From assembly GCF_000260965.1 (NCBI RefSeq), contig NC_017856.1, positions 1,530,001-1,562,000 of the forward strand: a stretch of DNA of 32,000 nucleotides, written 5' to 3'. The DNA is from Methylophaga frappieri (GTDB lineage Bacteria > Pseudomonadota > Gammaproteobacteria > Nitrosococcales > Methylophagaceae). Positions 3,051 to 24,556 of the stretch are shown here, one piece after another (within the stretch, counting starts at the first letter, position 1; every line of letters starts with the position of its first letter). Both the position numbers and the translations under genes were made by a program. The notes under the pieces are model-generated. The model did not search any database and had not been told where the DNA came from. It saw only the letters and a program-made list of their open reading frames with translations.

Positions 3051-3054
3051 GCTC

Positions 3055-3584: not shown

Positions 3585-3613
3585 CCCATTGGGGAGTCTT
3601 CTTCCCCAATGGG
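3585..3613 (+). terminator. Strong stem-loop after radC (possible terminator or attenuator, no T-tract)
   Basis: Perfect 11-bp stem CCCATTGGGGA/TCCCCAATGGG with a 7-nt loop. A second 7-bp hairpin CTCCCTG (3623-3629) / CAGGGAG (3650-3656) overlaps the GGGAGAA ribosome-binding site of the next gene. Confidence 0.4.
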
Positions 3614-3663
3614 AAGGAGGTGCTCCCTGAATTTCTTAATTCATTTCTCCAGGGAGAAACCTT

Positions 3664-4930: not shown

Positions 4931-5797
4931 ATGAGAGACCTGAACTACCAATTGAAACAGTTGTGCAAACGCAATCGCGATGGCAGTTACAGTACGCAAG
5001 CCAATCGAGCGCGCATACTTAATCAGATTGCCAATCAACTGCAGGAGATGGGGTATCGGCGTATGACTACCCGATCCCTGAAGCCGAAGCACGTGGACGC
5101 CCTGGTGAAACGATGGCTCAGCGAGGGCATGGCAGCCGGTACCATCAAAAACCGTATGAATTGCTTGCGCTGGTGGGCTGCCAAGGTGGATAGACGCAAT
5201 GTTATCGCCAGATCGAATGAGTTCTACGGCATTCCCGATCGGCAGTTCGTCAGTCAACACTCCAAGGCGGTGGTTGTCGGTAACGATGCGTTGACCAGCG
5301 TTAAAGATGAGCATGTGCGAATGACTCTGGAGTTACAGCGCGCCTTCGGATTGCGCAGGGAGGAAGCAATCAAATTTATCCCAGCTTATGCCGATCAGGG
5401 TGATCACATTCGGTTGAAAGCCAGTTGGACGAAAGGAGGCAAGACGCGGATGGTGCCGGTGCTCACCCAGGAACAGCGTGCCGTCTTGAATCGTGCCCAC
5501 CGACTGGTGGGATCTGGTTCCCTGATTCCACCGCAGAAAACCTACATCCAGCAGCTGCGGACCTACGAACGTCATACCACTCAGGCAGGTTTATCGAAAC
5601 TGCATGGCCTGCGCCATGCGTATGCCCAGTCACGCTATCAGGCGTTGACGGGTTGGGCCTGTCCTGCGGCGGGTGGACCAGTCGCAAACAGTTTGAGCAT
5701 TGAGCAACGAAAGCAGGACCATCAGGCACGACTCACCATCAGTCGCGAATTGGGCCACGCCCGCGAGCAGATCAGCGCTGTGTATTTAGGTCGATGA
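4931..5797 (+). CDS. Tyrosine recombinase (small integrase-domain protein)
   Basis: The catalytic set is present: AFGLRREEA (Arg), KGGKTRMVPV (Lys), HGLRHAYA (HxxR) and LGHAREQISAVYLGR (His...Tyr). The ATG at 4931 follows GGAAAG. The track start at 4895 is a TTG. Confidence 0.8.
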   Translation: MRDLNYQLKQLCKRNRDGSYSTQANRARILNQIANQLQEMGYRRMTTRSLKPKHVDALVKRWLSEGMAAGTIKNRMNCLRWWAAKVDRRNVIARSNEFYGIPDRQFVSQHSKAVVVGNDALTSVKDEHVRMTLELQRAFGLRREEAIKFIPAYADQGDHIRLKASWTKGGKTRMVPVLTQEQRAVLNRAHRLVGSGSLIPPQKTYIQQLRTYERHTTQAGLSKLHGLRHAYAQSRYQALTGWACPAAGGPVANSLSIEQRKQDHQARLTISRELGHAREQISAVYLGR

Positions 5798-5911
5798 GTT
5801 TGGGTTGAGGCGTCTCATGGATAAGCACGACACTCACCGAGTGGATTAACCATTCACGCCAGAAGATCACTTGGCGATTATGATGCCATTCATCACGATT
5901 GAGGCCAAAAC

Positions 5912-6406
5912 ATGTCTCCGTTTAAACATCATGGAATCCCTCGTCTCCTAACGATAATGGTGTGCTGTTCTGGTGCTGCCGTCGGGAGCCATTCGGTAGT
6001 GGCGGCCGAGCGGCCCGTCACAACAATGACCACACTGACCCAAACGAGTCGCTATTCAGTGATGGTCGCTCAGCCGACCGCCGGGCAGCGGGATCTGTTA
6101 TCGGTGACGAGAGCGATCACGATTCCAGGCGACATCGACAGTGTGGGGGAGGCTTTCCACTGGATGTTGCGAGATTCCGGCTATCGCCTGGCGGCCGATG
6201 CTGTGCTGTCGGAGGAGGCGAAAGCCATGCTGGCGCTGCCACTGCCAGCGGTGCATCGCCGCTTTGAGCCCATGCCACTTCAAACCGTGATGGGACTTAT
6301 GATCGGTCCTGCTTTTCATCTCATCCAGGATCCCGTTCACCGCCTCATTGCGTTCGAGCGTTGCGTGGATATTTCTTCCCCCAATGTGACGGGAGGTGCG
6401 CAGTAA
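5912..6406 (+). CDS. PilL-like (TIGR03748-type) conjugative-region lipoprotein or secreted protein
   Basis: N-terminal signal-like peptide with Cys residues (LTIMVCCSGAAVG). Its position immediately upstream of the CxxC and SLT genes matches remembered ICE synteny. Confidence 0.5.
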   Translation: MSPFKHHGIPRLLTIMVCCSGAAVGSHSVVAAERPVTTMTTLTQTSRYSVMVAQPTAGQRDLLSVTRAITIPGDIDSVGEAFHWMLRDSGYRLAADAVLSEEAKAMLALPLPAVHRRFEPMPLQTVMGLMIGPAFHLIQDPVHRLIAFERCVDISSPNVTGGAQ

Positions 6407-6633
6407 TGGAGGCCTTCGTCATTGCCATCGTTTTTGTTACCGCATGGTTTTTGGGTGCTGAGTCCAGGCAAGTTGATCCGGAACCGCGTGCTGAAAGTGA
6501 GGCGGTTTCGATCGGCGATCAGATAGACGATCGAGAATGCTCCGTGCGTATTTTTGATCAGGAGTATCAGCTGATCATTCAGCGCGATCTGACCGTGCCC
6601 GTTGATCAACAGGTCAATGAAGATGACCATTGA
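6406..6633 (+). CDS. Small hydrophobic protein (hypothetical)
   Basis: The ATG overlaps the upstream TAA (TAATG). The N-terminal sequence MEAFVIAIVFVTAWFLG is a predicted transmembrane helix. The acidic tail is weakly convincing. Confidence 0.35.
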   Translation: MEAFVIAIVFVTAWFLGAESRQVDPEPRAESEAVSIGDQIDDRECSVRIFDQEYQLIIQRDLTVPVDQQVNEDDH

Positions 6634-6640
6634 GCATCGC

Positions 6641-7441
6641 ATGAGAAAACCTGCCATCGCATTAGTCGGGTTCTGCCTTTGCATCACGTTGCCCGTGAAC
6701 GCGGATACCCGACAGGCAGCCGAATCAAAATCTTCAAACGCCCCGACTGTCGAGCAATCGACGACAGAACGTATCGATTCTCAGACGTTTCGTGCTGACC
6801 AGTGGGGATTAGATGAATCGGAATGGCAGCGTTACCAATCTTTGCTGCAAGGTATCCGGGGCAGCGTGAGTCCTGCGACCTTGTCACCCCTCGAAGTGCT
6901 GGGCATCCACGCCCGCAGTGCCGATGAACGTCGGCGCTACGCTGAACAGTGGGCAGTGATGATGCGTGACGATGCCGAGCGCATCCTGGCGTTTCAGCGG
7001 GCTTACGACGACGCCCAGCGGCGCTTGTTCCCCAACGGTTTGTTGATCGATCCCGGTGTTGCAGCGTCCACCAAGCCGGATCAAGGTCTGGCTGGAAAAT
7101 TCGTGTGGCAATCGTCGGACCGGGTGTTGTTCTTTACCGATACCCAATGCCCGACCTGCGATGCGGTGCTGGAGCGATTGGTCAGCCAGATCAAACAGTT
7201 CTCCGGCATCGATCTGTACCTGATCGATGTGTTTGCCGGTGAGGAATCTCGCATACGTGATTGGGCGGCCTCGAAACAGATCGATCCCCAGTGGGTGAGC
7301 GAGCACAAGATTACCCTGAACATCGACGCCGGTGCGCTAGGTAAGGTCTCCGCACATACGGGGCTGCAAGGAAAAGATTTGCCCGTACTGATACTGCGGC
7401 GGGATGATCGCTTGATGCCCTTGCCGGTATCACGATTCTAG
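6641..7441 (+). CDS. Thioredoxin-fold CxxC protein (TIGR03759-type ICE protein)
   Basis: Signal peptide MRKPAIALVGFCLCITLPVNA and a CPTC redox motif in FFTDTQCPTCDAV. The start is uncertain: TTG at 6602, or ATG at 6617, 6623 or 6641. Confidence 0.7.
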   Translation: MRKPAIALVGFCLCITLPVNADTRQAAESKSSNAPTVEQSTTERIDSQTFRADQWGLDESEWQRYQSLLQGIRGSVSPATLSPLEVLGIHARSADERRRYAEQWAVMMRDDAERILAFQRAYDDAQRRLFPNGLLIDPGVAASTKPDQGLAGKFVWQSSDRVLFFTDTQCPTCDAVLERLVSQIKQFSGIDLYLIDVFAGEESRIRDWAASKQIDPQWVSEHKITLNIDAGALGKVSAHTGLQGKDLPVLILRRDDRLMPLPVSRF

Positions 7442-7453
7442 CGGGCGCCGGTC

Positions 7454-8014
7454 ATGGGGAGTTGGCCGATCATACCTTGTGTCATCGGTTTGCTGTGGTG
7501 GTCGACGGCCGCGCAGTCGCAATCCGTGCCAGTGGGGTATCAGCAAGTCGCGAGCGAATACGGCCTGCCTCCGGGCCTGCTCTACGCGGTGGCCTTGACC
7601 GAGAGCGGACAAAGCTCGCTTAGCGATGGACAGTTCCGCCCCTGGCCGTGGGCTCTCAATATTGATGGGGAAGGACACTATTTCCTGTCGCGTCAGATGG
7701 CATGGCAGGCCTTGGAGAAGGTGTTGACGGAAACCAAAATCTCGGTGGATATCGGGCTGATGCAAATCAGCTGGCGTTACCACCGTTCAGTCCTGGGTTC
7801 ATCCTGGCAAGCGCTGGATCCCTACCACAACCTGCGTGTGGCCGCCGCGATCCTGCGCGACTGCTTCGTCGAACACACCCACTGGATTCAAAGCGCCGGC
7901 TGCTATCACGCACCCAACGATCCTGCCCGAGCTGATCGCTATGGTCAGCGGGTCAAGGCGCACTGGATGCGGTTGGCCGATACATCACAGGAGGTACGCT
8001 TTGAGAATCCGTAA
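7454..8014 (+). CDS. Lytic transglycosylase (SLT domain)
   Basis: SLT motifs are present: LLYAVALTESG (catalytic Glu), DIGLMQIS and AGCYHAP. An N-terminal signal peptide is also present. Confidence 0.9.
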   Translation: MGSWPIIPCVIGLLWWSTAAQSQSVPVGYQQVASEYGLPPGLLYAVALTESGQSSLSDGQFRPWPWALNIDGEGHYFLSRQMAWQALEKVLTETKISVDIGLMQISWRYHRSVLGSSWQALDPYHNLRVAAAILRDCFVEHTHWIQSAGCYHAPNDPARADRYGQRVKAHWMRLADTSQEVRFENP

Positions 8015-8570
8015 ACAACGATCGTTACCAGTCCTCGTGCTCGGGCTGGTCATGAACTCCTCCGTATTGGCTGAGCTGGCGGTGATTTATGACAGTGGTG
8101 AGACCCGGCCCTTGGCGCCGTTACTCAGCCCACTTTTGTTGAAGAATACTCAATCGACCGCCCCGGCTGAATCGAACAACCAGAATCTATCTTCAAAGTC
8201 CTTGCTCGGTCCGGCGACTCTCAGCAATTTATTGCCCATACGGTCACCCGGATTGGCGGTTGGCGATACCGCCGATAGCCAACTGAATCCCGAAGCCCTG
8301 GCGCGTTTGGCGCAAGGGAATCCACGCCCCTTCTTTCTCATCGGCTCGGATGCGTTGTCATTGCAATGGCTGGCGACTCACCACGACACTCTCAAAGACC
8401 TGGGTGCGGTGGGCATGTTGGTACAAGCCGATACCGAGGCGGATGTTCGACGGGTTGCTGAAGTGGCGCAGGACTTATCCATCACTCTGGGGTCCGGGAG
8501 TGATCTGGCCGCCGCATTGGGTATTCAACATTACCCGGTATTGATTACCCGTGATGGCATCCGGCAATGA
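8001..8570 (+). CDS. Secreted ICE protein (TIGR03765-type)
   Basis: The TTG at 8001 lies 6 nt after a perfect AGGAGG (7989-7994). This start gives the signal peptide MRIRKQRSLPVLVLGLVMNSSVLA. It overlaps the SLT gene by 14 nt. Confidence 0.6.
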   Translation: MRIRKQRSLPVLVLGLVMNSSVLAELAVIYDSGETRPLAPLLSPLLLKNTQSTAPAESNNQNLSSKSLLGPATLSNLLPIRSPGLAVGDTADSQLNPEALARLAQGNPRPFFLIGSDALSLQWLATHHDTLKDLGAVGMLVQADTEADVRRVAEVAQDLSITLGSGSDLAAALGIQHYPVLITRDGIRQ

Positions 8571-10696
8571 GCTCGCATCCGATGGAAGCGCTGTTGCGGC
8601 CTCCCGTGGAGTTGTGGTCCACCTGTACGGCGTTTGCGGCGGGTACACTGGCCTGGCTCGCCCCCTGGGCCTTGATGATGCCACCGGGTATCGCAATGGC
8701 CACCAGCCTGACCTTTTTCGGTTTTGGCTTGTGGCGGAGCCGTCAAGCATGGCGTGTATTGCGCTACCAGCATCACATGAAGCGGCTGCCGGATTACCAA
8801 GTGCGGGCCAACCAGATTCCCGTCAGTCGCCATAAGCTGTTTTTGGGCAAAGGCTTTCGCTGGAGCCAGCAACACACTCAGCGTCTGCGCGATACCCTGA
8901 AGCCCGAGGTTCAACGTTACGTTCAGCCGGGCACGCTTTACCAGTGGGCGCGACAAAAGGAAGTTGCCTGGGAATCGATTCCAGTCCTGTCTTTGCTGAC
9001 CAAAGCTCTGCGTAGTCGCAGCCGTTGGAACCCGCTGGCGCCATTACCGGCCGTCGGCGGTAAGCCCGCCCTGCACGCGGTTGAACCGCAAGAGCAGCCA
9101 GTGTGGATGGATCTGGGTGAACGGGTCGGGCACACGCTGGTGTTGGGCACCACGCGCGTCGGTAAGACACGCCTGGCGGAACTGCTGATTACCCAGGACA
9201 TCCGCCGGGGTGATGTCGTCATTGTCTTCGATCCGAAAGGGGATGCCGATCTGTTGCGTCGCATCTACGCCGAGGCAAAGCGCGCCGGTCGGCTGGACGA
9301 TTTTTATCTGTTCCATCTCGGTTTTCCGGAACTGTCGGCGCGTTACAACGCCATCGGGAACTTCTCCCGCATCACCGAGGTCGCGACTCGCATCGCCAAT
9401 CAGCTGCCCAACGAGGGCAACTCAGCTGCCTTCAAGGAGTTCGCCTGGCGCTTCGTGAATATCATTGCGCGCGCCTTGGTGGCCCTGAAACGCCGGCCGG
9501 ACTACCAGCAGATCCGTCGCTACATCAACGACATTGAGCCCTTGTTTGTGGAATACGCCGGGCACTGCGCCGGTGTGGCCGACATCGAAGCCTGGCCGTC
9601 TCTGGTTGAAGCGCGCGCGGCGGATATCAAAGAGCGCAATTTACCCAATGCCCTGCGTGGCCGGTCGATGGAAGCCATCGCCTGCATGCGCTTGCTGCAG
9701 GAGAAGGCCATTTATGACCCTGTCCTGGACGGGCTGATTTCCGCGTTCAAATACGATAAGACTTATTTCGACAAGATCGTCAGCTCTGTCGGCCCGTTGA
9801 TGGAAAAGCTGACCACCGGCACCATCGCCGGGTTGATCTCACCGGATTACCAGGACGAGCAGGATGCGAGGCCGATCTTTGAATGGATGGATGTGGTGCG
9901 CCGCAAGGGTATCGTGTATGTGGGATTGGATGCGCTCACCGATACCACGGTCGCCAGTGCAGTGGGCAATTCCATGTTTGCTGATTTGGTGTCTGTGGCA
10001 GGGCATATCTACAAGCACGGCGTCGCGGCCAATGGCGCTGATGCGTCCGAATCAGAACGTCAGCGGCATTCGACCCCCACCATCTCTATGCATGCGGATG
10101 AGTTCAACGAGTTGATCGGTGATGAATTCGTGCCGCTGTTGAACAAGGCGGGCGGGGCAGGCTTTCAGGTCACGGCCTACACCCAGACCTGGTCGGACGT
10201 CGAAGCGCGTATCGGTAGTCGGGCCAAAGCGGGGCAGGTGGCCGGTAACTTCAACACTATGCTGATGCTACGAGTGAAGGAGTTGGATACTGCCGCCATG
10301 CTGACCGAGCAGTTACCGCGGGTTGAAGTCTTCACCCTGATGAGTGTCTCTGGCGTCGATGATTCGTCGGATCCCGGTTCCGGGGTCGACTTCAAATCCC
10401 GCAACGAAGACCGGATCAGTGTCTCGGAAGTACCGATGCTAACTGCCGCCGATATGGTCACGCTGCCCAAAGGGCAGGCCTTCGCCCTGCTGGAAGGCGG
10501 CCAGCTGTGGAAAATCCGTATCCCATTGCCGGACGACCGCGAGGATACGGCCATGCCCGACGACTTCGAGGCAATAGCCGAGGCCATGCGCCGCAGCTAT
10601 ATCACCAACGATCACTGGTACCGGGTCACCGACCACTGGTGGCACGCAGTCTCCGAGGCCGCGATCCGACCCTCAGACGCCGGTGAGCAGGCTTGA
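8567..10696 (+). CDS. traD: Type IV coupling protein TraD
   Basis: N-terminal transmembrane helices, Walker A GTTRVGKT and Walker B-like ISMHADEF. The length is 709 aa. The start overlaps the upstream stop (ATGA). Confidence 0.9.
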   Translation: MSSHPMEALLRPPVELWSTCTAFAAGTLAWLAPWALMMPPGIAMATSLTFFGFGLWRSRQAWRVLRYQHHMKRLPDYQVRANQIPVSRHKLFLGKGFRWSQQHTQRLRDTLKPEVQRYVQPGTLYQWARQKEVAWESIPVLSLLTKALRSRSRWNPLAPLPAVGGKPALHAVEPQEQPVWMDLGERVGHTLVLGTTRVGKTRLAELLITQDIRRGDVVIVFDPKGDADLLRRIYAEAKRAGRLDDFYLFHLGFPELSARYNAIGNFSRITEVATRIANQLPNEGNSAAFKEFAWRFVNIIARALVALKRRPDYQQIRRYINDIEPLFVEYAGHCAGVADIEAWPSLVEARAADIKERNLPNALRGRSMEAIACMRLLQEKAIYDPVLDGLISAFKYDKTYFDKIVSSVGPLMEKLTTGTIAGLISPDYQDEQDARPIFEWMDVVRRKGIVYVGLDALTDTTVASAVGNSMFADLVSVAGHIYKHGVAANGADASESERQRHSTPTISMHADEFNELIGDEFVPLLNKAGGAGFQVTAYTQTWSDVEARIGSRAKAGQVAGNFNTMLMLRVKELDTAAMLTEQLPRVEVFTLMSVSGVDDSSDPGSGVDFKSRNEDRISVSEVPMLTAADMVTLPKGQAFALLEGGQLWKIRIPLPDDREDTAMPDDFEAIAEAMRRSYITNDHWYRVTDHWWHAVSEAAIRPSDAGEQA

Positions 10697-11430
10697 GCAC
10701 GGTGGAGCCCCGTGATCCCCGACGGCCGGTTGCACAGCCGGGTACCGTATCCCGGTTGCTGACGGGTATCGCCCAGTGCCTCAAGTGGCTGTTTCTCTCC
10801 CTGTTGTTCTCCATTCTGGTGGAGTGGGTCGGCATGGTGTTCTGGTGGGAAGAGCAAGGACTTGGCCACAGTCGACAGATGCTGGTGAACGAATTGCAGT
10901 TCCTCGGCACCGACTTTCATCGCAGCTGGTTAACCGCCCAGCCGATGGTGTTCGCCAGTAACCTCTCGGATCGCGTCTACCAGTTTGCCTTCGAGTGGAC
11001 GGGGCTCGTGGATCTGATTCATTGGATCACACCGGTACCGTCTGCGGAGGAGACTGGTCTGAGACCGGTACTGCACCGATTTTACCGGCCCGTCGCTGAC
11101 TATGTGCTGGCGGGTATGCAAATCACCCAGGTCTTTGCGGTACGACTCGCCATCCTGACGCTGGCCACGCCGGTATTTGGACTGTTCACCCTGGTAGCGC
11201 TGGTGGATGGGCTGGTGCGGCGCGACCTGCGGCGTTGGGGCGGCGGCAGGGAAAGTTCTTTCGTGTACCACTACGCCAAGAAAGCCGCCATACCGCTGAT
11301 CATCATGGCCTGGGTGTTGTACCTGGCGCTGCCGTTCAGTTTGCACCCGTCCTGGATCATCCTGCCATTCGCGCTGGCCTTTGCCTTCGCCGTCACCATC
11401 ACAGCCAGTACCTTTAAAAAGTACCTTTAA
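10693..11430 (+). CDS. ICE integral membrane protein (TIGR03747-type)
   Basis: Several hydrophobic helices. The start overlaps the traD stop. Its position after traD matches remembered synteny. Confidence 0.65.
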   Translation: MSTVEPRDPRRPVAQPGTVSRLLTGIAQCLKWLFLSLLFSILVEWVGMVFWWEEQGLGHSRQMLVNELQFLGTDFHRSWLTAQPMVFASNLSDRVYQFAFEWTGLVDLIHWITPVPSAEETGLRPVLHRFYRPVADYVLAGMQITQVFAVRLAILTLATPVFGLFTLVALVDGLVRRDLRRWGGGRESSFVYHYAKKAAIPLIIMAWVLYLALPFSLHPSWIILPFALAFAFAVTITASTFKKYL

Positions 11431-11449
11431 TACAAAGTGATTGAGCCAG

Positions 11450-11504
11450 TTGACTGTACCGTTACAGTCTGCTAGGCTGCATTTAAGCACTGTAAAGATA
11501 CAGT
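11450..11504 (+). promoter_or_regulatory. Candidate sigma70 promoter with two palindromic operators for the Xre/RES operon
   Basis: TTGACT (11450-11455), a 17-nt spacer, then TAGGCT (11473-11478). Palindrome 1 is GACTGTA-CCGT-TACAGTC (11452-11469). Palindrome 2 is ACTGTA-AAGA-TACAGT (11489-11504). An AGGAGG lies 6 nt before the ATG at 11529. Confidence 0.55.
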
Positions 11505-11528
11505 CTGAATGCTGTTTAGGAGGCAATC

Positions 11529-11930
11529 ATGATCGCTCAAGCCGAACAACTGCTGCAACGTGGTTCCAGTGTCACCAGGTCACTGCTGCCGGCGATTTTC
11601 ACTATCTTCAGCCAGTGGCGCCTCACTGGTGCCCAGCAGATGACGCTACTGGGGCTCAGCAATGAGAAGACCCTCTATAACTGGAAGAGCCAACCCGAGA
11701 AGGCCAAGCTGACGCGAGACCTGTTGGAACGGGCCAGCTACATTTTGGGGATCTACAAGTCCCTGCAAATCCTGTTGCCTGATCAGGTGCTGGCTGACCA
11801 GTGGCTGGCCACACCGAACGACAACCCGCTGTTCAATGGCACGGCGCCGCTGGACCGGATACTCGCTGGTCAGGTGGTCGACCTGGCCGTGGTCAGGGAT
11901 TTTCTTGATGCGGAGCGGGGTGGCTGGTGA
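11529..11930 (+). CDS. Xre/MbcA/ParS-type antitoxin (DUF2384 toxin-binding domain)
   Basis: The C-terminal sequence WLATPNDNPLFNGTAPLDRILAGQVVDLAVVRDFLDAERGG is typical of DUF2384. The gene overlaps the RES gene by 4 nt. Confidence 0.85.
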   Translation: MIAQAEQLLQRGSSVTRSLLPAIFTIFSQWRLTGAQQMTLLGLSNEKTLYNWKSQPEKAKLTRDLLERASYILGIYKSLQILLPDQVLADQWLATPNDNPLFNGTAPLDRILAGQVVDLAVVRDFLDAERGGW

Positions 11931-12619
11931 TTGCAATCGATACGCTACCCAGCAGCGAGGTCAATGAACCGGTCTATCGGGTCATACTGTCGCGCTACCC
12001 GCAGATCCACCTGTTCGAACGCGTCTCCAGCCCACAGGATTGGGAGGTGCTCTACGCCGTCGAGTCCCTGACGAATCCCAGGCTACGGGATGAAGTTGGT
12101 GATATTCGCCTGGTGCCGCCGGAAGACCGGGTCTACGGTGACGGTGCATCCTGGATAATGGCGGCCTTTACCCACCCGCCAGTGGATGGCCGAGGTGGTC
12201 GCTTCAACCGGGACTTCGGCATCTATTACTGCGCTGCCGATGAAGCAGTCGCCATCGCCGAATCGTCCTACCACCGGGCGCGATTTCTGCGTGAGTCCCG
12301 AATCGACAAGACCACCCAGGAAATGCGCGTGATTCGCGCACAGTTGGGGCCGACAACTCTCCACGATGTCCGTCACCTGCTTGAAGACGCCATCTACGAC
12401 CTTGATCATTATGACGAAGCCCAGCAGCTCGGTTACGCGTTACGTGATGCTAAAAGTTACGGTGTTCACTACCAAAGCGTGAGAGCAAAAGGGGAGTGCT
12501 ACGGAGTGATGCGTGCCCGATCGCTGTCCGATGCGATTCACTGGCGTTATCTGAGCTACCACTATGACCAGGGGGCGATAGTCAACGTCGAATCTCTCGA
12601 TGGCAGTGGCAGGAGGTGA
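11927..12619 (+). CDS. RES-domain toxin (NAD+-targeting family)
   Basis: R-E-S signature: GGRFNRDFGIYYCAADEAVAIAES and YGVHYQSVRAKG. The 230-aa length fits the family. Confidence 0.9.
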   Translation: MIAIDTLPSSEVNEPVYRVILSRYPQIHLFERVSSPQDWEVLYAVESLTNPRLRDEVGDIRLVPPEDRVYGDGASWIMAAFTHPPVDGRGGRFNRDFGIYYCAADEAVAIAESSYHRARFLRESRIDKTTQEMRVIRAQLGPTTLHDVRHLLEDAIYDLDHYDEAQQLGYALRDAKSYGVHYQSVRAKGECYGVMRARSLSDAIHWRYLSYHYDQGAIVNVESLDGSGRR

Positions 12620-12624
12620 TGGCA

Positions 12625-13215
12625 ATGTATAAAGAGCTGCTGTGGATCTTCACACAACTCCCGGACGATTACATCGTCCTCGATACCGAAACCACCGGTC
12701 TCCCTGACGAAAACGGCCCGCCGGATATCGTGACGATTGGCTTCACCGTGGTGAGAAATCGAGAGATAGCGGAATCCGTCGAGTTTAAAACACGGCCACA
12801 AAAACACATTTCAGAAGAAGCGCAGTCGATACACGGTATTACCAATGAACAGGCTGCAGGATTTGATGCCTTTGATTCCCAATGGAACCAGATTGCCGAC
12901 TACCTGAAAGATCAACTCATCGTCATCCACAACGCCAGTTTTGACTGGCCGATCCTGCTGGATCACGTCGCCCGATACGGTTTATCAATGCCGCCAATTC
13001 AAGGTGTGTTCTGCAGTCAGAAAGCCGCCATTCCGTGGGCACAGGCAGCGAATTTGCCGTGCAGCCACAGAGGTCCATCGTTAGACGCGTTGACGAAAGC
13101 GGTTGGCGTTGAAGATCTCAGAGCAAAGATTGGTGGAGCTCATGGGGCGGAAATTGATAGCAGGCAGACGGCTCAAGTGACAGAGGTGATGAGACGTAAT
13201 GGAAATGCAAATTAG
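12625..13215 (+). CDS. DEDDh 3'-5' exonuclease (DnaQ/epsilon-like, stand-alone)
   Basis: ExoI VLDTETTGL, ExoII VIHNASFDWPIL and ExoIII HGAEIDSRQT. An AGGAGG at 12611-12616 lies inside the end of the RES gene. Candidate starts are GTG 12616, ATG 12619 and ATG 12625. Confidence 0.85.
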   Translation: MYKELLWIFTQLPDDYIVLDTETTGLPDENGPPDIVTIGFTVVRNREIAESVEFKTRPQKHISEEAQSIHGITNEQAAGFDAFDSQWNQIADYLKDQLIVIHNASFDWPILLDHVARYGLSMPPIQGVFCSQKAAIPWAQAANLPCSHRGPSLDALTKAVGVEDLRAKIGGAHGAEIDSRQTAQVTEVMRRNGNAN

Positions 13216-13309
13216 GTTTTAACCTTGAGTCATGATGAGCGAAATTGCGCAATGAATTGCCACCAGTTTTCTAGCCAAAGAGTGGCTTATCAATGGAGGA
13301 TAAGTGTAG

Positions 13310-14656
13310 ATGCTTGATCAGATGTTCACTGCGGAAAATTTCCGACGTATCTATGATAGTGAAAATCGGAAGGGTCTTGATCTCGCAGGTCTCTATTTTC
13401 CCGATCTCGAACCCCATACTCTCGCTGTTCGCAACAAAGTTCAGGAAATTCGTGCGTATCGATCAAGAGAATCCAGCATCAAGGCTGAAGATTTCAAGCA
13501 GAATCTAGACGCCCTAAAGGCTGAGCTCGTCCATTTGAAAGCCACAAAGTCCGCTGCGATTGACGAGAAAATGGATGATATTAGCCTCAAGGTACTGCAG
13601 CCTAGCTTCAAAATCGAACTTAGCCAAAAGACTGGACCCAAGGGAAAGCTTGTTTATTGTATTGATTCGAAGCCAGAGACCTTTTTTGTCATCAAACAGC
13701 TTCAGCGTAATATCTACCGGATTTATGGCGTCAAACAGGCCAATCGCCACGATCTCGTATGCCAAGTGCGTGATACCGTCGGGACAAAATTTCCTTTTGA
13801 GATGGTTCGGACAGACATCTCAACGTTCTACGAAAGTATTGACAGAAAGAGGCTCATCAAGAAACTTGATAAGGATCAGCTCCTAAGCCCTTCCTCAAAA
13901 AAGTTCATTAATCAGGTATTGGATTCCTACGGGGTTCTATCCGGAACATCCACCGGTATCCCTAGGGGTGTAGGCATCAGCGCTTATTTAGCTGAACTCT
14001 ACTTGCGTCCAGTTGACAAGGCAATTCGCGCCATTCCAGGGCTTATTCTTTACTGCCGTTTTGTCGATGACGTAGTGGCGATCTTTGCGCGTCCTCCCAC
14101 TGGCACGGATCTTGGCTCATATAAAGATCACGTCATCAAAGTTTTTGCAGAAAATGGTCTGACACACAATCTGGACAAGACTTATGAATTTGATCTGAAG
14201 AGGCAGGAGCCGAAGAAGTTCGAGTACCTTGGTTATCGATTTCTGGTCCAGCCTGGCCAGTGCCAAATTAAAGCCAGTTCTGCGAAAATTCTGAAATATA
14301 AGAACCGCATGAACGCTGCATTTGAAGACTACTGGAAAAGCTGCTCCACTGACTCCAGGCGGGCTTATCGTGTTCTTGTATCGCGAATAAAGTTTCTAAC
14401 AGGTAACACTCGCCTTTCGAATAGCAAGTCACGGGCGGCAACGGGGATATATTACAACAATTCCATTGCAAACGATCTCTCTAGTTTCGAGATGCTGGAT
14501 AAACTAATGAAGAAACGTGTGGCGAAGATTAAGCGTGCAAGTCTTCGGAAGCGGCTCAAAACTTACAAGTTCACGGAGGGTTTTAAGACTCGGCGTTTTC
14601 ATAATTTCAATTCGCGTGAGCTGCAAACGATAGTAAAGGCTTGGAAATATGAGTAA
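13310..14656 (+). CDS. Reverse transcriptase 1 (448 aa; UG3/Drt3a-like by architecture, unverified)
   Basis: RT palm motifs: VRTDISTFYESID (motif A Asp), GIPRGVGISAYLAELYLRPVD, YCRFVDDVVAIF (motif C FVDD, nt 14060-14071), GLTHNLDKTYEF and FEYLGYRF. GGAGGA lies 9 nt before the ATG. Confidence 0.9.
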   Translation: MLDQMFTAENFRRIYDSENRKGLDLAGLYFPDLEPHTLAVRNKVQEIRAYRSRESSIKAEDFKQNLDALKAELVHLKATKSAAIDEKMDDISLKVLQPSFKIELSQKTGPKGKLVYCIDSKPETFFVIKQLQRNIYRIYGVKQANRHDLVCQVRDTVGTKFPFEMVRTDISTFYESIDRKRLIKKLDKDQLLSPSSKKFINQVLDSYGVLSGTSTGIPRGVGISAYLAELYLRPVDKAIRAIPGLILYCRFVDDVVAIFARPPTGTDLGSYKDHVIKVFAENGLTHNLDKTYEFDLKRQEPKKFEYLGYRFLVQPGQCQIKASSAKILKYKNRMNAAFEDYWKSCSTDSRRAYRVLVSRIKFLTGNTRLSNSKSRAATGIYYNNSIANDLSSFEMLDKLMKKRVAKIKRASLRKRLKTYKFTEGFKTRRFHNFNSRELQTIVKAWKYE

Positions 14657-16718
14657 ACGGCGTGCCACTCTCACCCATAGAAAGCAGCGATCCGTTCTAA
14701 CGGATATGCTGCCGTTTGAGGTGCCTCCGACCTTCTCCAATCGAGGTTTTTACCGATTTTTAAGAGATCACGATATAGAGATTGATGATGGATGTATTCG
14801 CTGGGTTTCAGATACCAATGATCTCGATGCAACAATGCAACTGTTATTCGGCATCGAAGACAAGGGCTCGATTGAAACCGAAATTTTAAGCGAGTGGGGG
14901 AGGACGAAGACGCGTAGATATGTTCGTTTGAAAAAATGCAATATGACAACAATACCTTTCAATTTCCAGATTTCTCACAATCTCGACGGTCGAACCCTAA
15001 GTGTCGTGCATCCGCGCAATCAGGTTGCGGTCGCGAGTTTCTATGCGGCGCAAAGCGCGCTAATTGTTTACTACACTTCTTTAAGTGACTTCTCGATTCG
15101 GCGGCCGGTTTCGGTATCTCGCCATGCATATTTCAATGACAGATTGCATCAGGAAAAGCTGGATTCCGTCGCCGGTGTGGAAGAAGAAGACAAGGAATAT
15201 GAACAGCTTGGCTCTTATTTTGTTTACAAAAAGTACCGCAATATTCACCAGTTCTTTGAGTCGTACAAATATCATCGATGTGAGAAAAAATATGACGCGA
15301 TGGTCCAAATAGACGTAAATAAATGCTTTGATAGTATTTATACTCACTCTCTACCTTGGGCTGTGCTCGGAAAGTCGCAGACAAAGTTCAGTTTATCGGA
15401 ATCCAAACATACGTTCGGTGGATTGTTCGATACATTGATGCAGAACCTCAATCACAATGAAACCAACGGGATTGTGATCGGGCCAGAATTCTCCCGAATT
15501 TTTTCAGAGATTATCCTGCAGGCGGTCGATGTCGAGCTTTCGAAGCGTCTGTCCGAAGACTCTAATCTTACGCATAAAGTTGATTATGAGATTTTTCGTT
15601 ACGTTGATGACTACTTTGTTTTTTACAATGAGGAGTCTACACAGTTAAAAATTATAGAAACGCTGCAAGCTTTTTTGAAGGTCAATAAGTTAAGTATTAA
15701 TACCTCCAAGATTAAGCACTATCAAAAGCCCATCATCACCGAAATCACGATTGCCAAGAATCGCATATCAACGCTATTGAATAACGAAATCAATCCGGCC
15801 ACTGAAGAGGTTGTTGTAGAGGACCCTGAGGAGGCAGGGGCTATAAAGCTCGCATGTCCCGTAAATTCAAATCGGCTCATTATTCGCTTCAAGACGGTAA
15901 TTAAAGAAACGTCTGTCACTTACGGCGAGCTACTGAATTACACTCTCGCTATTACCGAAAACAAAATCGAAAAACTTTTTCAATCCTATCTGGCGTGTGA
16001 CAAAACAATACATGACCAGAAGCAGCTACTTAAAACGCTTTTGGCGGTTATGGAGTTCGCATTTTTTGTGTATTCTGCAAACCCGCGCGTAAATCATACG
16101 ATTCGGCTTTGCCGGATGATTACAGCCTCAATTGACTTTCTCTGCGTTAATTCACTTCCTTATGAATTGAAGCACTTGCTGTTCAAATACGTCCATGACA
16201 ATGTATTGCAACAGCTGGAAAAGAACGCGATGAACGCTCATTGTGAAGTCGAAAGCTTATATCTTCTCATTTCTTTGTCGCAAATCGGGCGAGAGTATTG
16301 GCTACCTGAGTCAGTCTTGCTGCGGCATTTTCTCATTACGGAGGAAGAGGCCACGCACAAGTATCAGCGTGTCGGATTCATGAGTCATTTTTCCATTACG
16401 GTGCTGTTGTCTTACATAAAGGATAAAGTCCGCTATGCGAAACTTAAGGCCTTCACTGAAGAGCACATCATTCGTAAGCTCGAGTATATGAGAGCGCATT
16501 GCCACAATGATGCGGAAGCCATGATCCTTCTATTGGATTTGATTGTATGCCCCTACATTAGCACCGCTACTAAGGACGCGATAGGCCAGTTTTTCGGGCT
16601 GGATGCCACAACACTTACAGCTATTCAGAAGACCAATGACCACTGGTTTACGGCATGGGGGGGCAAATTCGATCTCGGTAAAGAGCTAGACGCCAAGCGC
16701 AGTCGTGAAGTATATTAG
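14649..16718 (+). CDS. Reverse transcriptase 2 (689 aa; UG8/Drt3b-like by architecture, unverified)
   Basis: RT motifs: VQIDVNKCFDSIYTHSL, NGIVIGPEFSRIFSEIILQAVD, IFRYVDDYFVFY (YVDD, nt 15600-15611) and KLSINTSKIKHY. There is an N-terminal extension of about 215 aa and a C-terminal helical region of about 320 aa. The start overlaps the RT1 stop (ATGAGTAA). Confidence 0.9.
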   Translation: MSKRRATLTHRKQRSVLTDMLPFEVPPTFSNRGFYRFLRDHDIEIDDGCIRWVSDTNDLDATMQLLFGIEDKGSIETEILSEWGRTKTRRYVRLKKCNMTTIPFNFQISHNLDGRTLSVVHPRNQVAVASFYAAQSALIVYYTSLSDFSIRRPVSVSRHAYFNDRLHQEKLDSVAGVEEEDKEYEQLGSYFVYKKYRNIHQFFESYKYHRCEKKYDAMVQIDVNKCFDSIYTHSLPWAVLGKSQTKFSLSESKHTFGGLFDTLMQNLNHNETNGIVIGPEFSRIFSEIILQAVDVELSKRLSEDSNLTHKVDYEIFRYVDDYFVFYNEESTQLKIIETLQAFLKVNKLSINTSKIKHYQKPIITEITIAKNRISTLLNNEINPATEEVVVEDPEEAGAIKLACPVNSNRLIIRFKTVIKETSVTYGELLNYTLAITENKIEKLFQSYLACDKTIHDQKQLLKTLLAVMEFAFFVYSANPRVNHTIRLCRMITASIDFLCVNSLPYELKHLLFKYVHDNVLQQLEKNAMNAHCEVESLYLLISLSQIGREYWLPESVLLRHFLITEEEATHKYQRVGFMSHFSITVLLSYIKDKVRYAKLKAFTEEHIIRKLEYMRAHCHNDAEAMILLLDLIVCPYISTATKDAIGQFFGLDATTLTAIQKTNDHWFTAWGGKFDLGKELDAKRSREVY

Positions 16719-17000
16719 GCGTGGCGCACCGCTCTACCCTTAATGGCTGTTGGCAGCCCACACACAAGCGCCTTCACGGCTCCTATATCAATTGGGGGTT
16801 GGGTAACCAGGCGGCAGGAGCGGGTCGTCTCCCCCCCCCCTAACTATCGCGGTATCACCTCAGTCTCTTGCTCACATTCATATTCAGAATCTCGAGGATA
16901 GTTTGCTCAAGTAATATCCCTCCTGGTAGCAACTGTTGAATGACGATCTAGAATTAAAAACCACCCCACCCACCGAATAGATTTCCCCTCGTCCCCCATC
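16719..17000 (+). ncRNA. Candidate non-coding RNA associated with the RT pair (hypothesis)
   Basis: This stretch contains no ORF. It holds a hairpin GGCTG-TTGG-CAGCC (16745-16758) followed directly by (CA)4 (16759-16766). G5/G3 tracts (16794-16803) face a C10 run (16831-16840). There is a bulged hairpin GAGGATA...TATCC(C)TC (16894-16922) and C-rich tracts CCACCCCACCCACC (16961-16974) and CCCCTCGTCCCCC (16985-16997). Strand and ends are unknown. Confidence 0.3.
16831..16840. repeat. C10 homopolymer
   Basis: Ten consecutive C residues read directly from the sequence. Confidence 0.95.
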
Positions 17001-17049
17001 ATTAATTCTCGCACTATGCCCCGTAACAACTCACGGGAGCAGCAGTGCC

Positions 17050-17352
17050 ATGAAACGCCATCTCTGGCTACCTTCTTTTCTGATTATAGGCTTGGTTGTC
17101 ACGCCGGCGGCTTTTGCCAATGCAGGCGCCGAGCGCGAGGCGCTCGCCAAAGTCATCCATGAGCTCAATGCCCTCGAGTCATTAATCAAGCGTGCCGAGG
17201 CCAACGCCGAGCAGGATTCCCGTATCCGATTTCGCTATGACTGGCTGCGTCAGGATCTGAAGCAGATCAAGGATGGCATCCATTCACACATCGACTCTCC
17301 CCGTGCTCAGCCTCGCTCATTTCCGCCATTGCGCGGCGATTACCGTCGATAG
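17050..17352 (+). CDS. RAQPRD-family ICE protein
   Basis: Signal peptide MKRHLWLPSFLIIGLVVTPAAFA and the C-terminal signature SPRAQPRSFPPLRGDY. Confidence 0.85.
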   Translation: MKRHLWLPSFLIIGLVVTPAAFANAGAEREALAKVIHELNALESLIKRAEANAEQDSRIRFRYDWLRQDLKQIKDGIHSHIDSPRAQPRSFPPLRGDYRR

Positions 17353-17360
17353 GTCTCGTC

Positions 17361-17591
17361 ATGAACGCCGCACAACAAACAGCCTTTCAAGCCGGTTCCG
17401 GTATTACCCCGGCCACCATGCTGACGGCCATCGCGTCGATGGTGTTGGTGTTGGCGTTTGTCTGGGTGATTTGGGTAGCGTTAGGAACTTTTCGGGCCTG
17501 GCAGGAAGGGCAGGCCACGCTCTTTGATCTGACCTGGAGCACCCTGCGGGCAAGCATTGTGTTGATGGTTTTGGGTTTCTATTTGCGGTGA
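17361..17591 (+). CDS. Small ICE membrane protein (TIGR03758-type)
   Basis: 76 aa with two hydrophobic helices. Its position after the RAQPRD gene matches remembered synteny. Confidence 0.6.
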   Translation: MNAAQQTAFQAGSGITPATMLTAIASMVLVLAFVWVIWVALGTFRAWQEGQATLFDLTWSTLRASIVLMVLGFYLR

Positions 17592-21823: not shown

Positions 21824-21832
21824 GAACGCTTG

Positions 21833-24556
21833 ATGCCAAAACATAAACCTAACCTTCCCGAGGGTGCGCCCTTAACCACTGCCGCGGTCAAACAACACTA
21901 TACCCGCCCGCCGTCGTTTACCGATTTGCTGCCTTGGATGGAATACATTCCCGAGAGTAGAGCTTTTCTGTTAGAGGATGGGGTCAGCCTCGGCGCGCTG
22001 TTCGAGGTGCAGCCGGTCGGTTGTGAGGCAAGGACGCCAGCCTTTATGACCCAGCTGCGTGACGCCATTCAAACGGCAATCAACGAGGCCATTCCCGAGC
22101 GCGACGATGCGCCTTGGGTATTGCAGATCTATGTGCAGGACGAGCCCAGGCTAACTCAATTCAATGAGTCGTTGGCCCGTTATCCGTCGCCGGCGGTTCG
22201 TGCTTCGGATTACTCTCAACATTACCAGTCGGTGATGTCGAAGCACCTGCAAGCGATTTCCCGACCGGGTGGGTTGTTTGACGATACCACCGTCACCGGT
22301 TCGCGTTGGCAGGGGCAGCAACGGCGGATCCGCGTTGTGCTCTACCGCCGTTTGAAAAGCAACGGCAAAATGCCACCCGCTGTTGAAGTGGAGGAGGCGC
22401 TCAATGACGTGGCCACCAAATGGATCGCCTCACTGACCTCTGCCGGAATCAACGCCCAACGGGTCAATGGTCAGGCGTTTTATCATTGGTTGCTGAGCTG
22501 GTTCAATCCCAATCCACCGCTGGCAGACGGTAATCCAGAATCAATGCTCCAGTTGGCACCCTATCCGGGCGATGACAATTTACCCTTCGGCTATGACTTT
22601 GCCGAACAGCTGACCCTGTCGATGCCCCGTTCCGACGAGACAACAGCGACTTGGCTCTTCGATAACTTGCCTCATACGGTGGTGACCATTCAAAGTCTGC
22701 GGCGGGCGCCAGATATAGGGCACTTCACGGCGGAACGCCAGGCCGGGGATCAGGTGTATTCGCTGTTCGATCGTTTACCCGAGCACACCATCATGGCGAT
22801 AACTCTCACGCTCAAACCGCAAGACACTACCCGCAATCACATTGCCCAGATCAAGCGTGCTTCGGTAGGCGATTCCGCTGAGGCGTCGATCACCCGGGAA
22901 GATGCGGAACACGTGGAGCGGGAAATGGCGCAGGGGAACAAGCTGTATCCCGTGAGCATGGCCTTCTATGTGCGCGGAGATAATCAAAAGGCGCTACGGA
23001 ACAATTTGAATCGTCTCCACGCGCTGCTTTTGCCCAATGGTCTGCAGCCCATTGCCCAGGAAGCTGACCTGCTGTCGCTCGACAGTTACATCCGTAACCT
23101 GCCCATGGCCTACGACGCCGACCTGGACAAATCCCGCCGACGCTCGCGGCTGATCTTCTCTCGGCATATTGCCAATATGGTACCGTTCTACGGCCGTTCC
23201 CGTGGCACCGGTCATCCCGGCCTGGTGTTCTACAACCGGGGCGCCGAACCGCTGGTCTTCGACCCGTTGCACAGGGATGACCGTAAGAAAAACGCCCACA
23301 TGCTGATCCTTGGGCCGACGGGGGCGGGCAAGTCGGCACTGTTGGTATATCTGCTGCAGCAGATGATGGCACGGCATCGGCCACGGTTTTTTATTATCGA
23401 GGCAGGGGCTTCGTTTTCGTTGCTGGGGCAGCATTTTGCGCATCACGGTCTGTCAGTGAACCAGATCACCCTGAACCCTAATGTCGATGTTAGCCTGCCG
23501 CCTTTCGCCGATGCGCTTCGACTTCTGGATCGGCGTCACGCGTTTAATCCACTCGATGTCGATGTATCCACAATGGAGGAGACGTTAGACGAAGATGATG
23601 AGATCGAGGAGGAAGGGGGCGGTCGCGATATCCTCGGCGAAATGGAGATCGCTGCACGTATCATGATTACCGGCGGCGATGAACGCGAAGACGCGCGATT
23701 GACCCGGGCCGACCGACTGCTGATCCGCAATGCCATATTCCTTGCCGCAAAAACCGTGAAAGAGACCAGTCGAACCCAGGTGATTACCCAGGATGTGGTC
23801 AACGCCTTCCAGACCATCGCCACCAACAGGGAATTGCCCGAACACCGGCGTAATCGAGCCCTGGAAATGGGGGATGGTATGGCGTTGTTCTGTTCGGGCC
23901 TGGCGGGCCACTTCTTCAACCGGCCGGGACAGTCCTGGCCTGAAGCCGATGTCACTATCCTCGAAATGGGCATGTTGGCCAGAGAGGGCTACGAGGATCA
24001 GCTCACCGTCGCCTACCTGTCCATGATGAGCCATATCAATGACCTGGTGGAACGTCATCAACATGACGATCGGCCCACGCTGGTGGTGACTGACGAAGGC
24101 CACATCATTACCACCAATCCCTTGCTGGCGCGCTACGTGGTCAAGATCACCAAAATGTGGCGCAAGCTCGGTGCCTGGTTCTGGATCGCCACCCAGAATC
24201 TGGAAGACTTTCCGGATGCCAGCCGCAAGATGCTCAACATGATGGAGTGGTGGCTGTGCCTGGTCATGCCGAAAGAAGAGGTGGAGCAGATCGCCCGCTT
24301 CAAGGATCTCAATGACGAACAGCGCAACCTCCTGTTGTCTGCCCGCAAGGAGCCGGGAAAATACGTGGAAGGAGTCGTCCTGGCCGACAAGGTCGAAGCG
24401 CTGTTCCGCAACGTACCGCCAGCCTTATCGCTCGCCCTGGCCATGACCGAAAAGCATGAGAAGGCTGAACGTGCAGCGATTATGCGTGAGAAGAACTGCT
24501 CGGAGCTGGAGGCGGTTTACGAGATCGCCAAGCGTATCGAGCAGTCTCGTGCGTAG
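21833..24556 (+). CDS. Conjugative transfer ATPase (VirB4/TraC-like, TIGR03744-type)
   Basis: Walker A GPTGAGKS and Walker B TLVVTDEGH. The length is about 907 aa. AGGAA lies 6 nt before the ATG at 21833. Confidence 0.9.
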   Translation: MPKHKPNLPEGAPLTTAAVKQHYTRPPSFTDLLPWMEYIPESRAFLLEDGVSLGALFEVQPVGCEARTPAFMTQLRDAIQTAINEAIPERDDAPWVLQIYVQDEPRLTQFNESLARYPSPAVRASDYSQHYQSVMSKHLQAISRPGGLFDDTTVTGSRWQGQQRRIRVVLYRRLKSNGKMPPAVEVEEALNDVATKWIASLTSAGINAQRVNGQAFYHWLLSWFNPNPPLADGNPESMLQLAPYPGDDNLPFGYDFAEQLTLSMPRSDETTATWLFDNLPHTVVTIQSLRRAPDIGHFTAERQAGDQVYSLFDRLPEHTIMAITLTLKPQDTTRNHIAQIKRASVGDSAEASITREDAEHVEREMAQGNKLYPVSMAFYVRGDNQKALRNNLNRLHALLLPNGLQPIAQEADLLSLDSYIRNLPMAYDADLDKSRRRSRLIFSRHIANMVPFYGRSRGTGHPGLVFYNRGAEPLVFDPLHRDDRKKNAHMLILGPTGAGKSALLVYLLQQMMARHRPRFFIIEAGASFSLLGQHFAHHGLSVNQITLNPNVDVSLPPFADALRLLDRRHAFNPLDVDVSTMEETLDEDDEIEEEGGGRDILGEMEIAARIMITGGDEREDARLTRADRLLIRNAIFLAAKTVKETSRTQVITQDVVNAFQTIATNRELPEHRRNRALEMGDGMALFCSGLAGHFFNRPGQSWPEADVTILEMGMLAREGYEDQLTVAYLSMMSHINDLVERHQHDDRPTLVVTDEGHIITTNPLLARYVVKITKMWRKLGAWFWIATQNLEDFPDASRKMLNMMEWWLCLVMPKEEVEQIARFKDLNDEQRNLLLSARKEPGKYVEGVVLADKVEALFRNVPPALSLALAMTEKHEKAERAAIMREKNCSELEAVYEIAKRIEQSRA

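Follow-up and report, generated by a model that had tools for sequence, protein, structure and literature searches.

A DRT3-type reverse transcriptase pair and its putative non-coding RNA as hotspot cargo of an integrative conjugative element in Methylophaga frappieri

The stretch of DNA examined here, hereafter the window, comprises 32,000 nucleotides (nt) of Methylophaga frappieri (contig NC_017856.1, forward-strand positions 1,530,001 to 1,562,000) and carries two adjacent genes, each encoding a reverse transcriptase (RT). An earlier note, made from the letters of the window alone, had proposed that the pair is either a defence-associated reverse transcriptase system of type 3 (DRT3) carried as cargo by an integrative conjugative element (ICE) or a new two-RT variant, and had asked how two polymerases could cooperate without an effector. 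Both open reading frames (ORFs) and the short overlap between them are present where the note had placed them (Table 1), as are the motifs TDIS (residue 168) and FVDD (residue 251, nt 14060-14071) of the upstream protein and IDVN (residue 221) and YVDD (residue 318, nt 15600-15611) of the downstream one. The overlap suggests translational coupling, and its form, ATGnnTAA or ATGnnTAG, is kept in 21 of 21 related loci examined. The pair is indeed a low-GC islet within an ICE, with a guanine-plus-cytosine (GC) content of 0.441 as against 0.57 for the ICE on both flanks, where the ICE genes pass NCBIfam cut-offs. Both proteins match RVT_1 of Pfam above the gathering score (E 5.6e-12 and 1.1e-13); RVT_1 was the only domain that Pfam gave for them and Rfam returned no family in the window, in agreement with the note's statement that no maturase or endonuclease domain and no group II intron RNA could be seen.

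The search with drt3a and drt3b profiles that the note had proposed, run here with PADLOC and NCBIfam, assigned the upstream protein to Drt3a (UG3) and the downstream one to Drt3b (UG8). Drt3a scores 413.6 bits against the NCBIfam equivalog NF041747 (cut-off 200), with profile positions 1-412 of 412 covered, and matches PADLOC model PDLC03768 with an E value of 5.5e-121, while its nearest PADLOC match outside DRT3 is RT_UG17 (E 4.3e-33). The best match among solved structures is the Drt3a chain 9z6y_A (E 3.3e-23). Its active site is intact, with D169 in motif A (TDIS) and both aspartates in motif C, which reads FVDD in 18 and YVDD in three of 21 close homologues. For Drt3b the values are 722.6 bits against NF041748 (cut-off 350; profile positions 1-647 of 647) and E 6.4e-199 against PDLC03784; the best matches in the PDB are 26cz_A, a SUMO-EcoDRT3b fusion (E 3.9e-72), and the Drt3b chain 9z6y_H (E 1.3e-62), and close relatives already bear the NCBI name 'antiviral reverse transcriptase Drt3b'. 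An entry of Methylophaga frappieri is 100% identical to this second RT.

The E. coli prototype of the family, made up of Drt3a (UG3) and Drt3b (UG8) together with a non-coding RNA (ncRNA), is said to go back to the work of Gao and colleagues in 2020. In this system (EcoDRT3; structures PDB 9z6y, 9z6z and 26cz), Drt3a copies the 5'-ACACAC-3' of a loop in the ncRNA, which lies downstream of drt3b and whose role as template has been proven experimentally, into poly(dT-dG), and Drt3b makes poly(dC-dA), for which it needs neither a nucleic-acid template nor the ncRNA (Wang et al. 2026, PMC13174585). EcoDRT3 Drt3b is a hexamer whose RT-like domain covers residues 1-322 and is accompanied by an alphaRep domain and a C-terminal tail; it primes on Y666, and alternation of dA and dC is brought about by a gate, E22, and a switch, R241, with a contribution from R71 (PMC13174585). 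Drt3b of the window is laid out in the same way, as RT-like domain, alphaRep domain and C-terminal tail. The helical region of about 320 C-terminal residues remarked on in the earlier note corresponds to the alphaRep oligomerisation domain together with the tail that ends in the putative priming tyrosine. The roughly 215 N-terminal residues also exist as described; the label of an extension was wrong, since by the domain limits of the solved Drt3b structure they belong to the RT-like domain, and they hold the nucleotide-selecting residues E24 and R115.

Equivalences between Eco and window residues were taken from a residue-level alignment to 26cz_A, in which the fusion numbering equals Eco plus 108, and conservation was counted over 121 sequences, namely 120 full-length, diverse representatives (30-58% identity) and the window protein; the EcoDRT3b sequence itself is absent among 150 Drt3b representatives. 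The C-terminal tail was left unaligned to the PDB chain by phmmer, and Tyr689 is equated with Eco Y666 because of the family alignment and of profiles that end at the last residue of the protein. At this priming position the tyrosine is the very last residue in 101 of the 120 homologues and the penultimate one in 17 (118/120 together). The window protein ends in SREVY-stop, and the proteins of close loci end in EVY-stop (20/21) or DVY-stop (1/21). Judged by this alignment, Drt3b keeps every residue whose part in priming or 'templating' the synthesis of poly(dC-dA) has been shown experimentally for E. coli DRT3b (Table 1).

The earlier note had also allowed for the two genes failing to co-occur in homologous loci. 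We found drt3a directly upstream of drt3b in all 25 related loci with enough sequence, and the same order in five of five annotated plasmid loci. DNA homology to the related loci that lie outside this ICE lineage (L001-L026) starts at the drt3a ATG (13309-13310; at 13273 for the closest locus, L001, and likewise for the ICE-borne L110) and stops at 16830-16841, i.e. at a 3' hairpin, and therefore the conserved unit is exactly drt3a, drt3b and the ncRNA described below. The hosts of these loci are alpha-, beta- and gammaproteobacteria, and the GC content of the cassettes lies between 0.44 and 0.56. A near-identity DNA search with 11400-17400 gave no match in E. coli genomes or PLSDB plasmids. 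Three loci look damaged and may be decaying copies: the drt3a of L012 is broken into fragments that lie about 1 kb apart, in L018 the best drt3a match is only partial, and in L026 the best drt3b match ends at residue 393.

The ncRNA had not been located in the earlier note, although it falls inside the span that the note had proposed to clone (13216-17049). About 115 nt directly 3' of the drt3b stop are conserved in 24 of 24 related loci with downstream sequence, and in all 24 the hexamer ACACAC stands at a fixed offset, 42 nt past the stop. It is invariant in the 23 aligned sequences, where it lies inside an invariant ACACACAAGCGCC block. Mean column identity of the ncRNA is 84% in this 23-sequence alignment (A1), compared with a nucleotide identity of about 69% for the genes. 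Two-sided compensatory change was seen in eight pairs, carried mostly by stems P3 and P4, as against 1.7 ± 1.1 in shuffled alignments (0/500 reach 8) and 1-5 in slid controls, and ACACAC is unpaired in the RNAalifold consensus fold. The folding z-score of the single sequence is 0.21, the support for the structure being the comparative analysis alone. R1, a covariance model made from the sequences of this clade, matches the window once, at 16719-16845 with 130.7 bits, and Rfam has no family for it, either at gathering thresholds over the whole window or at E<=1 in 16650-17060. The stem-loop that limits read-through in EcoDRT3 sits where P2 lies in the window, 5' of the template (PMC13174585). 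The segment 16729-16735 may pair with the P4 loop in a pseudoknot: in the register adopted here the two segments are pairable without two-sided covariation, and an alternative register was discarded in which two of seven pairs are unpaired in all sequences. An overlapping ORF of 52 residues (16743-16901) was likewise rejected as coding, its frame being broken by 1- and 2-nt indels in the alignment. Just upstream of the ncRNA, in the last codons of drt3b, lies a sigma-70-like site (16687-16716; TAGACG, 18 nt, TATATT). In all related loci the ncRNA is preceded by a -10-like TATAYT that the Val-Tyr-stop codons form, and TnGACG stands 17-18 nt upstream of it; the site could be an internal promoter of the ncRNA or could reflect coding constraint on the priming tyrosine.

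Table 1. Features of the DRT3 cassette, Drt3b residues equated with those of E. coli, and neighbouring genes. Positions are those of the window, or residue numbers of the window protein where so marked.
Feature	Position	Strand	Remarks
drt3a	13310-14656	+	UG3, class 2 RT; 448 aa, ATG start; NF041747, PDLC03768, 9z6y_A
drt3b	14649-16718	+	UG8, class 1 RT; 689 aa, ATG start; NF041748, PDLC03784, 26cz_A, 9z6y_H
drt3a/drt3b overlap	14649-14656	+	8 nt, ATGAGTAA; drt3b start inside drt3a stop
DRT3 ncRNA core	16723-16830	+	about 108 nt; starts 4 nt past drt3b stop; comparative alignment, covariance model
P1	16723-16728/16767-16772	+	encloses P2; nearly invariant
P2 stem-loop	16745-16749/16754-16758	+	directly abuts template, on 5' side
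5'-ACACAC-3', putative Drt3a template	16760-16765	+	single-stranded, between P2 and 3' strand of P1
P3	16775-16785/16793-16803	+	RNAalifold consensus
P4	16809-16815/16824-16830	+	RNAalifold consensus
Possible pseudoknot	16729-16735 with P4 loop 16817-16823	+	99.4% pairable, one-sided variation
Cargo leader	13255-13309	+	left break of ICE-backbone homology to drt3a start; includes GGAGGA ribosome-binding site
Cargo trailer	16831-16937	+	up to resumption of ICE-backbone homology; function unassigned
Eco E22 in Drt3b	residue E24 (in LPFEVPP)		conserved 118/121
Eco R71 in Drt3b	residue R115		conserved 121/121
Eco D182 in Drt3b	residue D222 (IDVN)		conserved 121/121
Eco F187 in Drt3b	residue F227		conserved 121/121
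Eco R241 in Drt3b	residue R283 (in PEFSRIF)		conserved 121/121
Eco YVDD in Drt3b	residues 318-321		D320, D321 121/121; position 318 Y in 114, F in 7
Eco Y666 in Drt3b	C-terminal residue Tyr689		Tyr at aligned position 120/121
TraD	8567-10696		NCBIfam cut-off passed
TIGR03747	10693-11430		NCBIfam cut-off passed
Xre-like antitoxin	11529-11930		upstream of cassette
RES toxin	11927-12619		upstream of cassette
DEDDh/DnaQ-like 3'-5' exonuclease	12616-13215		start overlaps RES stop; also matches PADLOC candidate PDC-S48
RAQPRD	17050-17352		NCBIfam cut-off passed
traC	21830-24556		NCBIfam cut-off passed
TraG_N gene	28732-30297		Pfam gathering score passed

For comparison with other DRT3 clades we used five plasmid loci, from Enterobacter, Zymomonas, Phaeobacter, Vibrio and Bacteroides, which stood in for the E. 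coli ncRNA. All five have a non-coding gap after drt3b with ACACAC within 250 nt downstream, a hexamer expected by chance, on our own estimate, at about 0.08 occurrences per locus per strand. Model R1 gave a weak but correctly placed match at the Zymomonas locus (11.8 bits, E 0.2). On these comparisons the ACACAC template is universal and the ncRNA scaffold clade-specific, which fits the fact that the published ncRNA model recovered only 32-41 ncRNAs.

The element that flanks the pair is, by its NCBIfam matches, an ICE of the PFGI-1/ICEclc class; besides the genes in Table 1, those for TIGR03758/45/50/46/49/52 and TIGR03755-57 pass their cut-offs. Homology of the backbone to ICEs without DRT3 breaks off no later than 13254 and sets in again at 16912-16959. 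In a related ICE (L061) the site is almost empty, its two borders being about 25 nt apart and the alignment resuming at about 16938. The breaks and the empty site therefore delimit a cargo of 3.7 kb, at approximately 13255-16937; no direct repeats longer than 7 nt were found flanking it. In sister ICEs the slot between the exonuclease gene and RAQPRD holds QatABCD, Gabija, Tmn, a type IX retron, the PADLOC candidate PDC-M14A, a CBASS operon (phospholipase, cyclase, E1-E2) or one of several unknown gene sets. [quoted passage not shown] RAQPRD) is the same, and CBASS, Gabija and retron are interchangeable there as well (PMC12629846). ICEs of the window type differ in having Xre, RES and DEDDh genes between TIGR03747 and the slot and come mostly from marine metagenomes. 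The term DRT3 is absent from the main text of PMC12629846.

Cumulatively, we consider it very likely, with a probability of about 0.93, that the locus is a complete DRT3 system (drt3a, drt3b and ncRNA), carried as cargo in the traD-RAQPRD hotspot of a PFGI-1/ICEclc-class ICE and working, by homology, as the E. coli system does. In EcoDRT3 both polymerase active sites are required for defence; the two strands anneal to double-stranded DNA (dsDNA), the system is lethal without RecBCD, and lambda Gam triggers abortive infection (PMC13174585). As relayed in the review PMC13314766, Deng et al. 2026 describe a complex of D3 symmetry in which Drt3a, Drt3b and ncRNA stand at 6:6:6, and the constitutive presence of kilobase-scale poly(GT/AC) dsDNA. 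By analogy, Drt3a of the window would bind the ncRNA and repeatedly copy 16760-16765, with P2 as the template boundary, to yield poly(dT-dG). Drt3b would oligomerise and prime DNA synthesis on its own Y689, and E24 and R283, helped by R115, would alternate dA and dC without a nucleic-acid template to yield poly(dC-dA). The two products would anneal to poly(GT/AC) dsDNA, which the RecBCD of the host would keep low in the uninfected cell. A phage that inhibits RecBCD by Gam-like proteins, or another invader, would let the dsDNA accumulate and so cause arrest or death, an abortive infection that would protect the clonal population and the ICE with it. No separate effector protein would be needed, because the DNA product would itself be the effector; the question of the missing effector is answered in this way, since in EcoDRT3 the dsDNA product is the toxic or signalling agent (PMC13174585).

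The likeness to EcoDRT3 extends to the order of the genes, a then b, overlapping or abutting; to the downstream ncRNA with ACACAC beside a stem-loop; to two intact catalytic sites; to the E/R/R selectors, the alphaRep domain and the priming tyrosine at the C-terminal tip of Drt3b; and to the lack of an effector gene. Several points nevertheless weigh against carrying the whole of the E. coli mechanism over to the window. Identity to the E. coli proteins is modest, with an E value of 3e-23 for Drt3a against 9z6y_A and, for Drt3b, matches to 26cz_A and 9z6y_H in the aligned core only. Drt3b has 689 residues as against 650-667 in the solved chains, and its priming tyrosine is the last residue, whereas that of Eco is the penultimate one. 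Motif C of Drt3a is FVDD where the prototype has YVDD, both F and Y being natural in the clade. The ncRNA is compact, begins 4 nt past the stop and has, by comparison with the plasmid loci, a clade-specific scaffold; R1 finds nothing at the expected position in the Enterobacter, Phaeobacter, Vibrio and Bacteroides loci, and contacts between RNA and protein, as well as stoichiometry, could differ from the prototype. A promoter scan, which returned fewer sites than shuffled sequence does, and the comparison of related loci revealed no conserved promoter upstream of drt3a. The window system, moreover, belongs to a lineage of marine methylotrophs and is carried by an ICE. The comparisons made here show that both proteins are members of the family with their functional residues intact, that a conserved and structured ncRNA with its template is present, that the genes strictly co-occur and that they lie in a defence hotspot; expression, complex formation, the DNA products, dependence on RecBCD and phage defence in this host are supposed by analogy.

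The same differences might be read as signs of a new two-RT variant that merely resembles DRT3 and has another product or mechanism, e.g. another repeat or a protein effector that has escaped notice. An ncRNA scaffold that goes unrecognised across DRT3 clades and belongs to no Rfam family would suit such a variant, as would FVDD in Drt3a and the length of Drt3b. We regard it as very improbable, because both proteins, over their full length, score about two-fold over the equivalog cut-offs, the ACACAC is the prototype's own and is invariant, the residues for dC/dA alternation and the priming tyrosine are all present and near-invariant, and the conserved module contains two genes and an RNA and nothing further; motif C, for its part, varies freely between F and Y among close homologues. 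Of the two possibilities raised in the earlier note, the new variant thus finds no support in profile scores, template or residue conservation, while DRT3 as ICE cargo is borne out by both curated equivalog cut-offs, by the PADLOC models and by the ACACAC-bearing ncRNA. Nor do the generic RVT_1 matches, with weaker cross-matches to group II intron RT, Drt4, Drt6 and AbiK/AbiP2, make a selfish retroelement or another class of RT (group II intron, retron, single RT of the AbiK/AbiP2/DRT4 type, CRISPR-associated RT) anything but a negligible prospect. The cross-scores lie far under the curated cut-offs (300-450 bits), Drt3a and Drt3b lie far above theirs, and the whole window holds no group II intron, retron msr or other Rfam family; cas genes are absent, as are maturase and endonuclease domains. 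Placement in the retron, group II intron, Abi or CRISPR-RT clades, which the note had named as evidence against its proposal, is not what the profiles indicate. For a group II intron RT/maturase, TIGR04416 gives 63.2 and 51.4 bits (cut-off 300), no Rfam intron is present and the Pfam match is RVT_1 only. The 25 best PADLOC matches listed per protein include no model of a retron RT, no msr was found with Rfam, and the ncRNA has a short repeat template without msr/msd inverted repeats. A single-gene class 1 UG/Abi RT was rejected on Drt4 (NF041749, 119.2 bits, cut-off 450), on the PADLOC E values for Drt6 (3.6e-46) and AbiK (1.3e-23) vs. that for Drt3b, and on the constant pairing of Drt3b with Drt3a; Drt2, at 46 bits, is far from its cut-off of 390.

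The genes just upstream invite a further reading, in which the RT pair works together with the DEDDh exonuclease and/or the Xre-RES pair as effector or regulator of its cDNA, in parallel with the exonuclease gating of DRT9, DRT10 and DRT3. The three genes are immediately adjacent to and co-oriented with the RT pair, the exonuclease matches CRISPR-associated DEDDh proteins in addition to PDC-S48, and there is precedent for nucleases of the host that hold DRT products in check (PMC13174585). Yet Xre, RES and DEDDh are found in none of the related DRT3 loci L001-L026, whereas, among 80 metagenomic relatives of the exonuclease, 78 have a RES gene beside them, often with TraD-TIGR03747 upstream, and DRT3 accompanies only two of the 80 (L032 and L110), the rest having other cargo. 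These counts place the Xre-RES-DEDDh trio in the ICE backbone and therefore outside DRT3. Backbone homology breaks between DEDDh and drt3a, GC is 0.51-0.58 in the trio but 0.44 in the RT pair, and the single-stranded DNA (ssDNA) exonuclease SbcB had no effect on E. coli DRT3 (PMC13174585), so that we give a composite of this kind only a very slim chance.

Within the DRT3 assignment itself, we entertain as an unlikely, though by no means absurd, refinement that the ncRNA scaffold is architecturally distinct from that of the E. coli prototype and that the ICE-borne system chiefly polices mobile elements that inhibit RecBCD, beyond lytic phages. The start 4 nt after the stop, the possible pairing of 16729-16735 with the P4 loop and the possible -10 element in the Val-Tyr-stop codons may point to such a scaffold. 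The idea concerns a widespread Drt3 clade, with Drt3b proteins of 689-690 residues in alpha-, beta- and gammaproteobacteria, and, if it is true, assembly of the ribonucleoprotein might depart from the published 6:6:6 complex.

DRT3, the assignment we favour, has relatives on both of its sides. According to PMC12632851 and PMC12489045, DRT10 (UG17) and DRT9 are class 2 UG RTs with ncRNA-templated synthesis of tandem repeats or homopolymers, in which a short template set in a loop of the ncRNA is copied again and again, much as by a telomerase, and accumulation of the product is gated by host exonucleases. They differ in having a single RT, with a SLATT effector in DRT10, whereas DRT3 adds a protein-templated RT and a dsDNA product. 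Drt3b shares the RT-like plus alpha-helical-repeat architecture and tyrosine priming of AbiK, Abi-P2, DRT4 and DRT6; its next-best profile matches are Drt6 and Drt4, and its PDB matches include 7r08, UG15 and AbiK. Those enzymes are stand-alone RTs whose protein-primed, untemplated product is ssDNA of random or non-alternating sequence, in contrast to Drt3b, whose specific E/R gates serve strict dC/dA alternation and which is, in the loci compared here, always accompanied by Drt3a.

Some observations concern the rest of the element. Judged from the loci L032-L111, the trio (11529-13215) amounts to a unit of three genes that is conserved in the backbone of this family of ICEs and that joins an exonuclease to a RES-Xre operon. 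The slot itself has at least 11 alternative contents across L033, L037, L038, L051, L054, L061, L073-76, L079 and L087, with further ones in L089-91, L093, L094, L102, L110 and L111. Large slot proteins without a PADLOC hit include one of 1088 residues (L051/L054), one of 1443 residues (L089/L090) and a pair in L111, and the slot of L079 holds six genes; the unassigned occupants are candidates for new defence genes. Between traC and the TIGR03757 gene, on the minus strand at 24571-25398, lies a gene for a protein of 275 residues with a NERD nuclease domain and a Top1-type zinc ribbon. It coincides with a local GC dip of about 0.53, its place is equivalent to that of the published 'GI-Hotspot 3' (TraC/TraU), and its weak PADLOC/NCBIfam matches to PglW and MAD6 cover the residues of the NERD domain (49-154 vs. 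33-145). After the TraG_N gene, the segment 30298-32000 is low in GC (0.45) and contains two minus-strand ORFs, 30415-30729 (104 residues) and 30827-31825 (332 residues), neither of which has a Pfam, NCBIfam or PADLOC match; the segment could be additional cargo, in a hotspot next to TraG, or else the margin of the ICE. At the other end, the backbone in 1-7500 includes a PFL_4669-family protein, a ParM/PRTRC-D-like protein, RadC, PilL2, TIGR03759, an integrase-like protein (4895-5797) and an ICE replication protein of the STY4534 family, whose 147.4 bits are just under the cut-off of 160.

The locus is an ordinary, uncharacterised member of the mechanistically solved DRT3 family in a known type of ICE hotspot. 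For annotation, this means that the second RT of Methylophaga frappieri, which carries a generic reverse-transcriptase name at NCBI, can be called drt3b and its upstream partner drt3a, and that an unmarked ncRNA of about 110 nt with an ACACAC template can be added. For the family, the residues for protein-templated synthesis of poly(dC-dA) persist across a large and taxonomically broad clade distant from the E. coli prototype, and the ACACAC template persists where the RNA scaffold has diverged past recognition by a covariance model. DRT3 is, furthermore, one of many interchangeable traD-RAQPRD cargos in the PFGI-1/ICEclc-type ICEs of marine bacteria. Current understanding of DRT3 is thus extended rather than changed in substance, and the ncRNA of a large Drt3 clade is now mapped.

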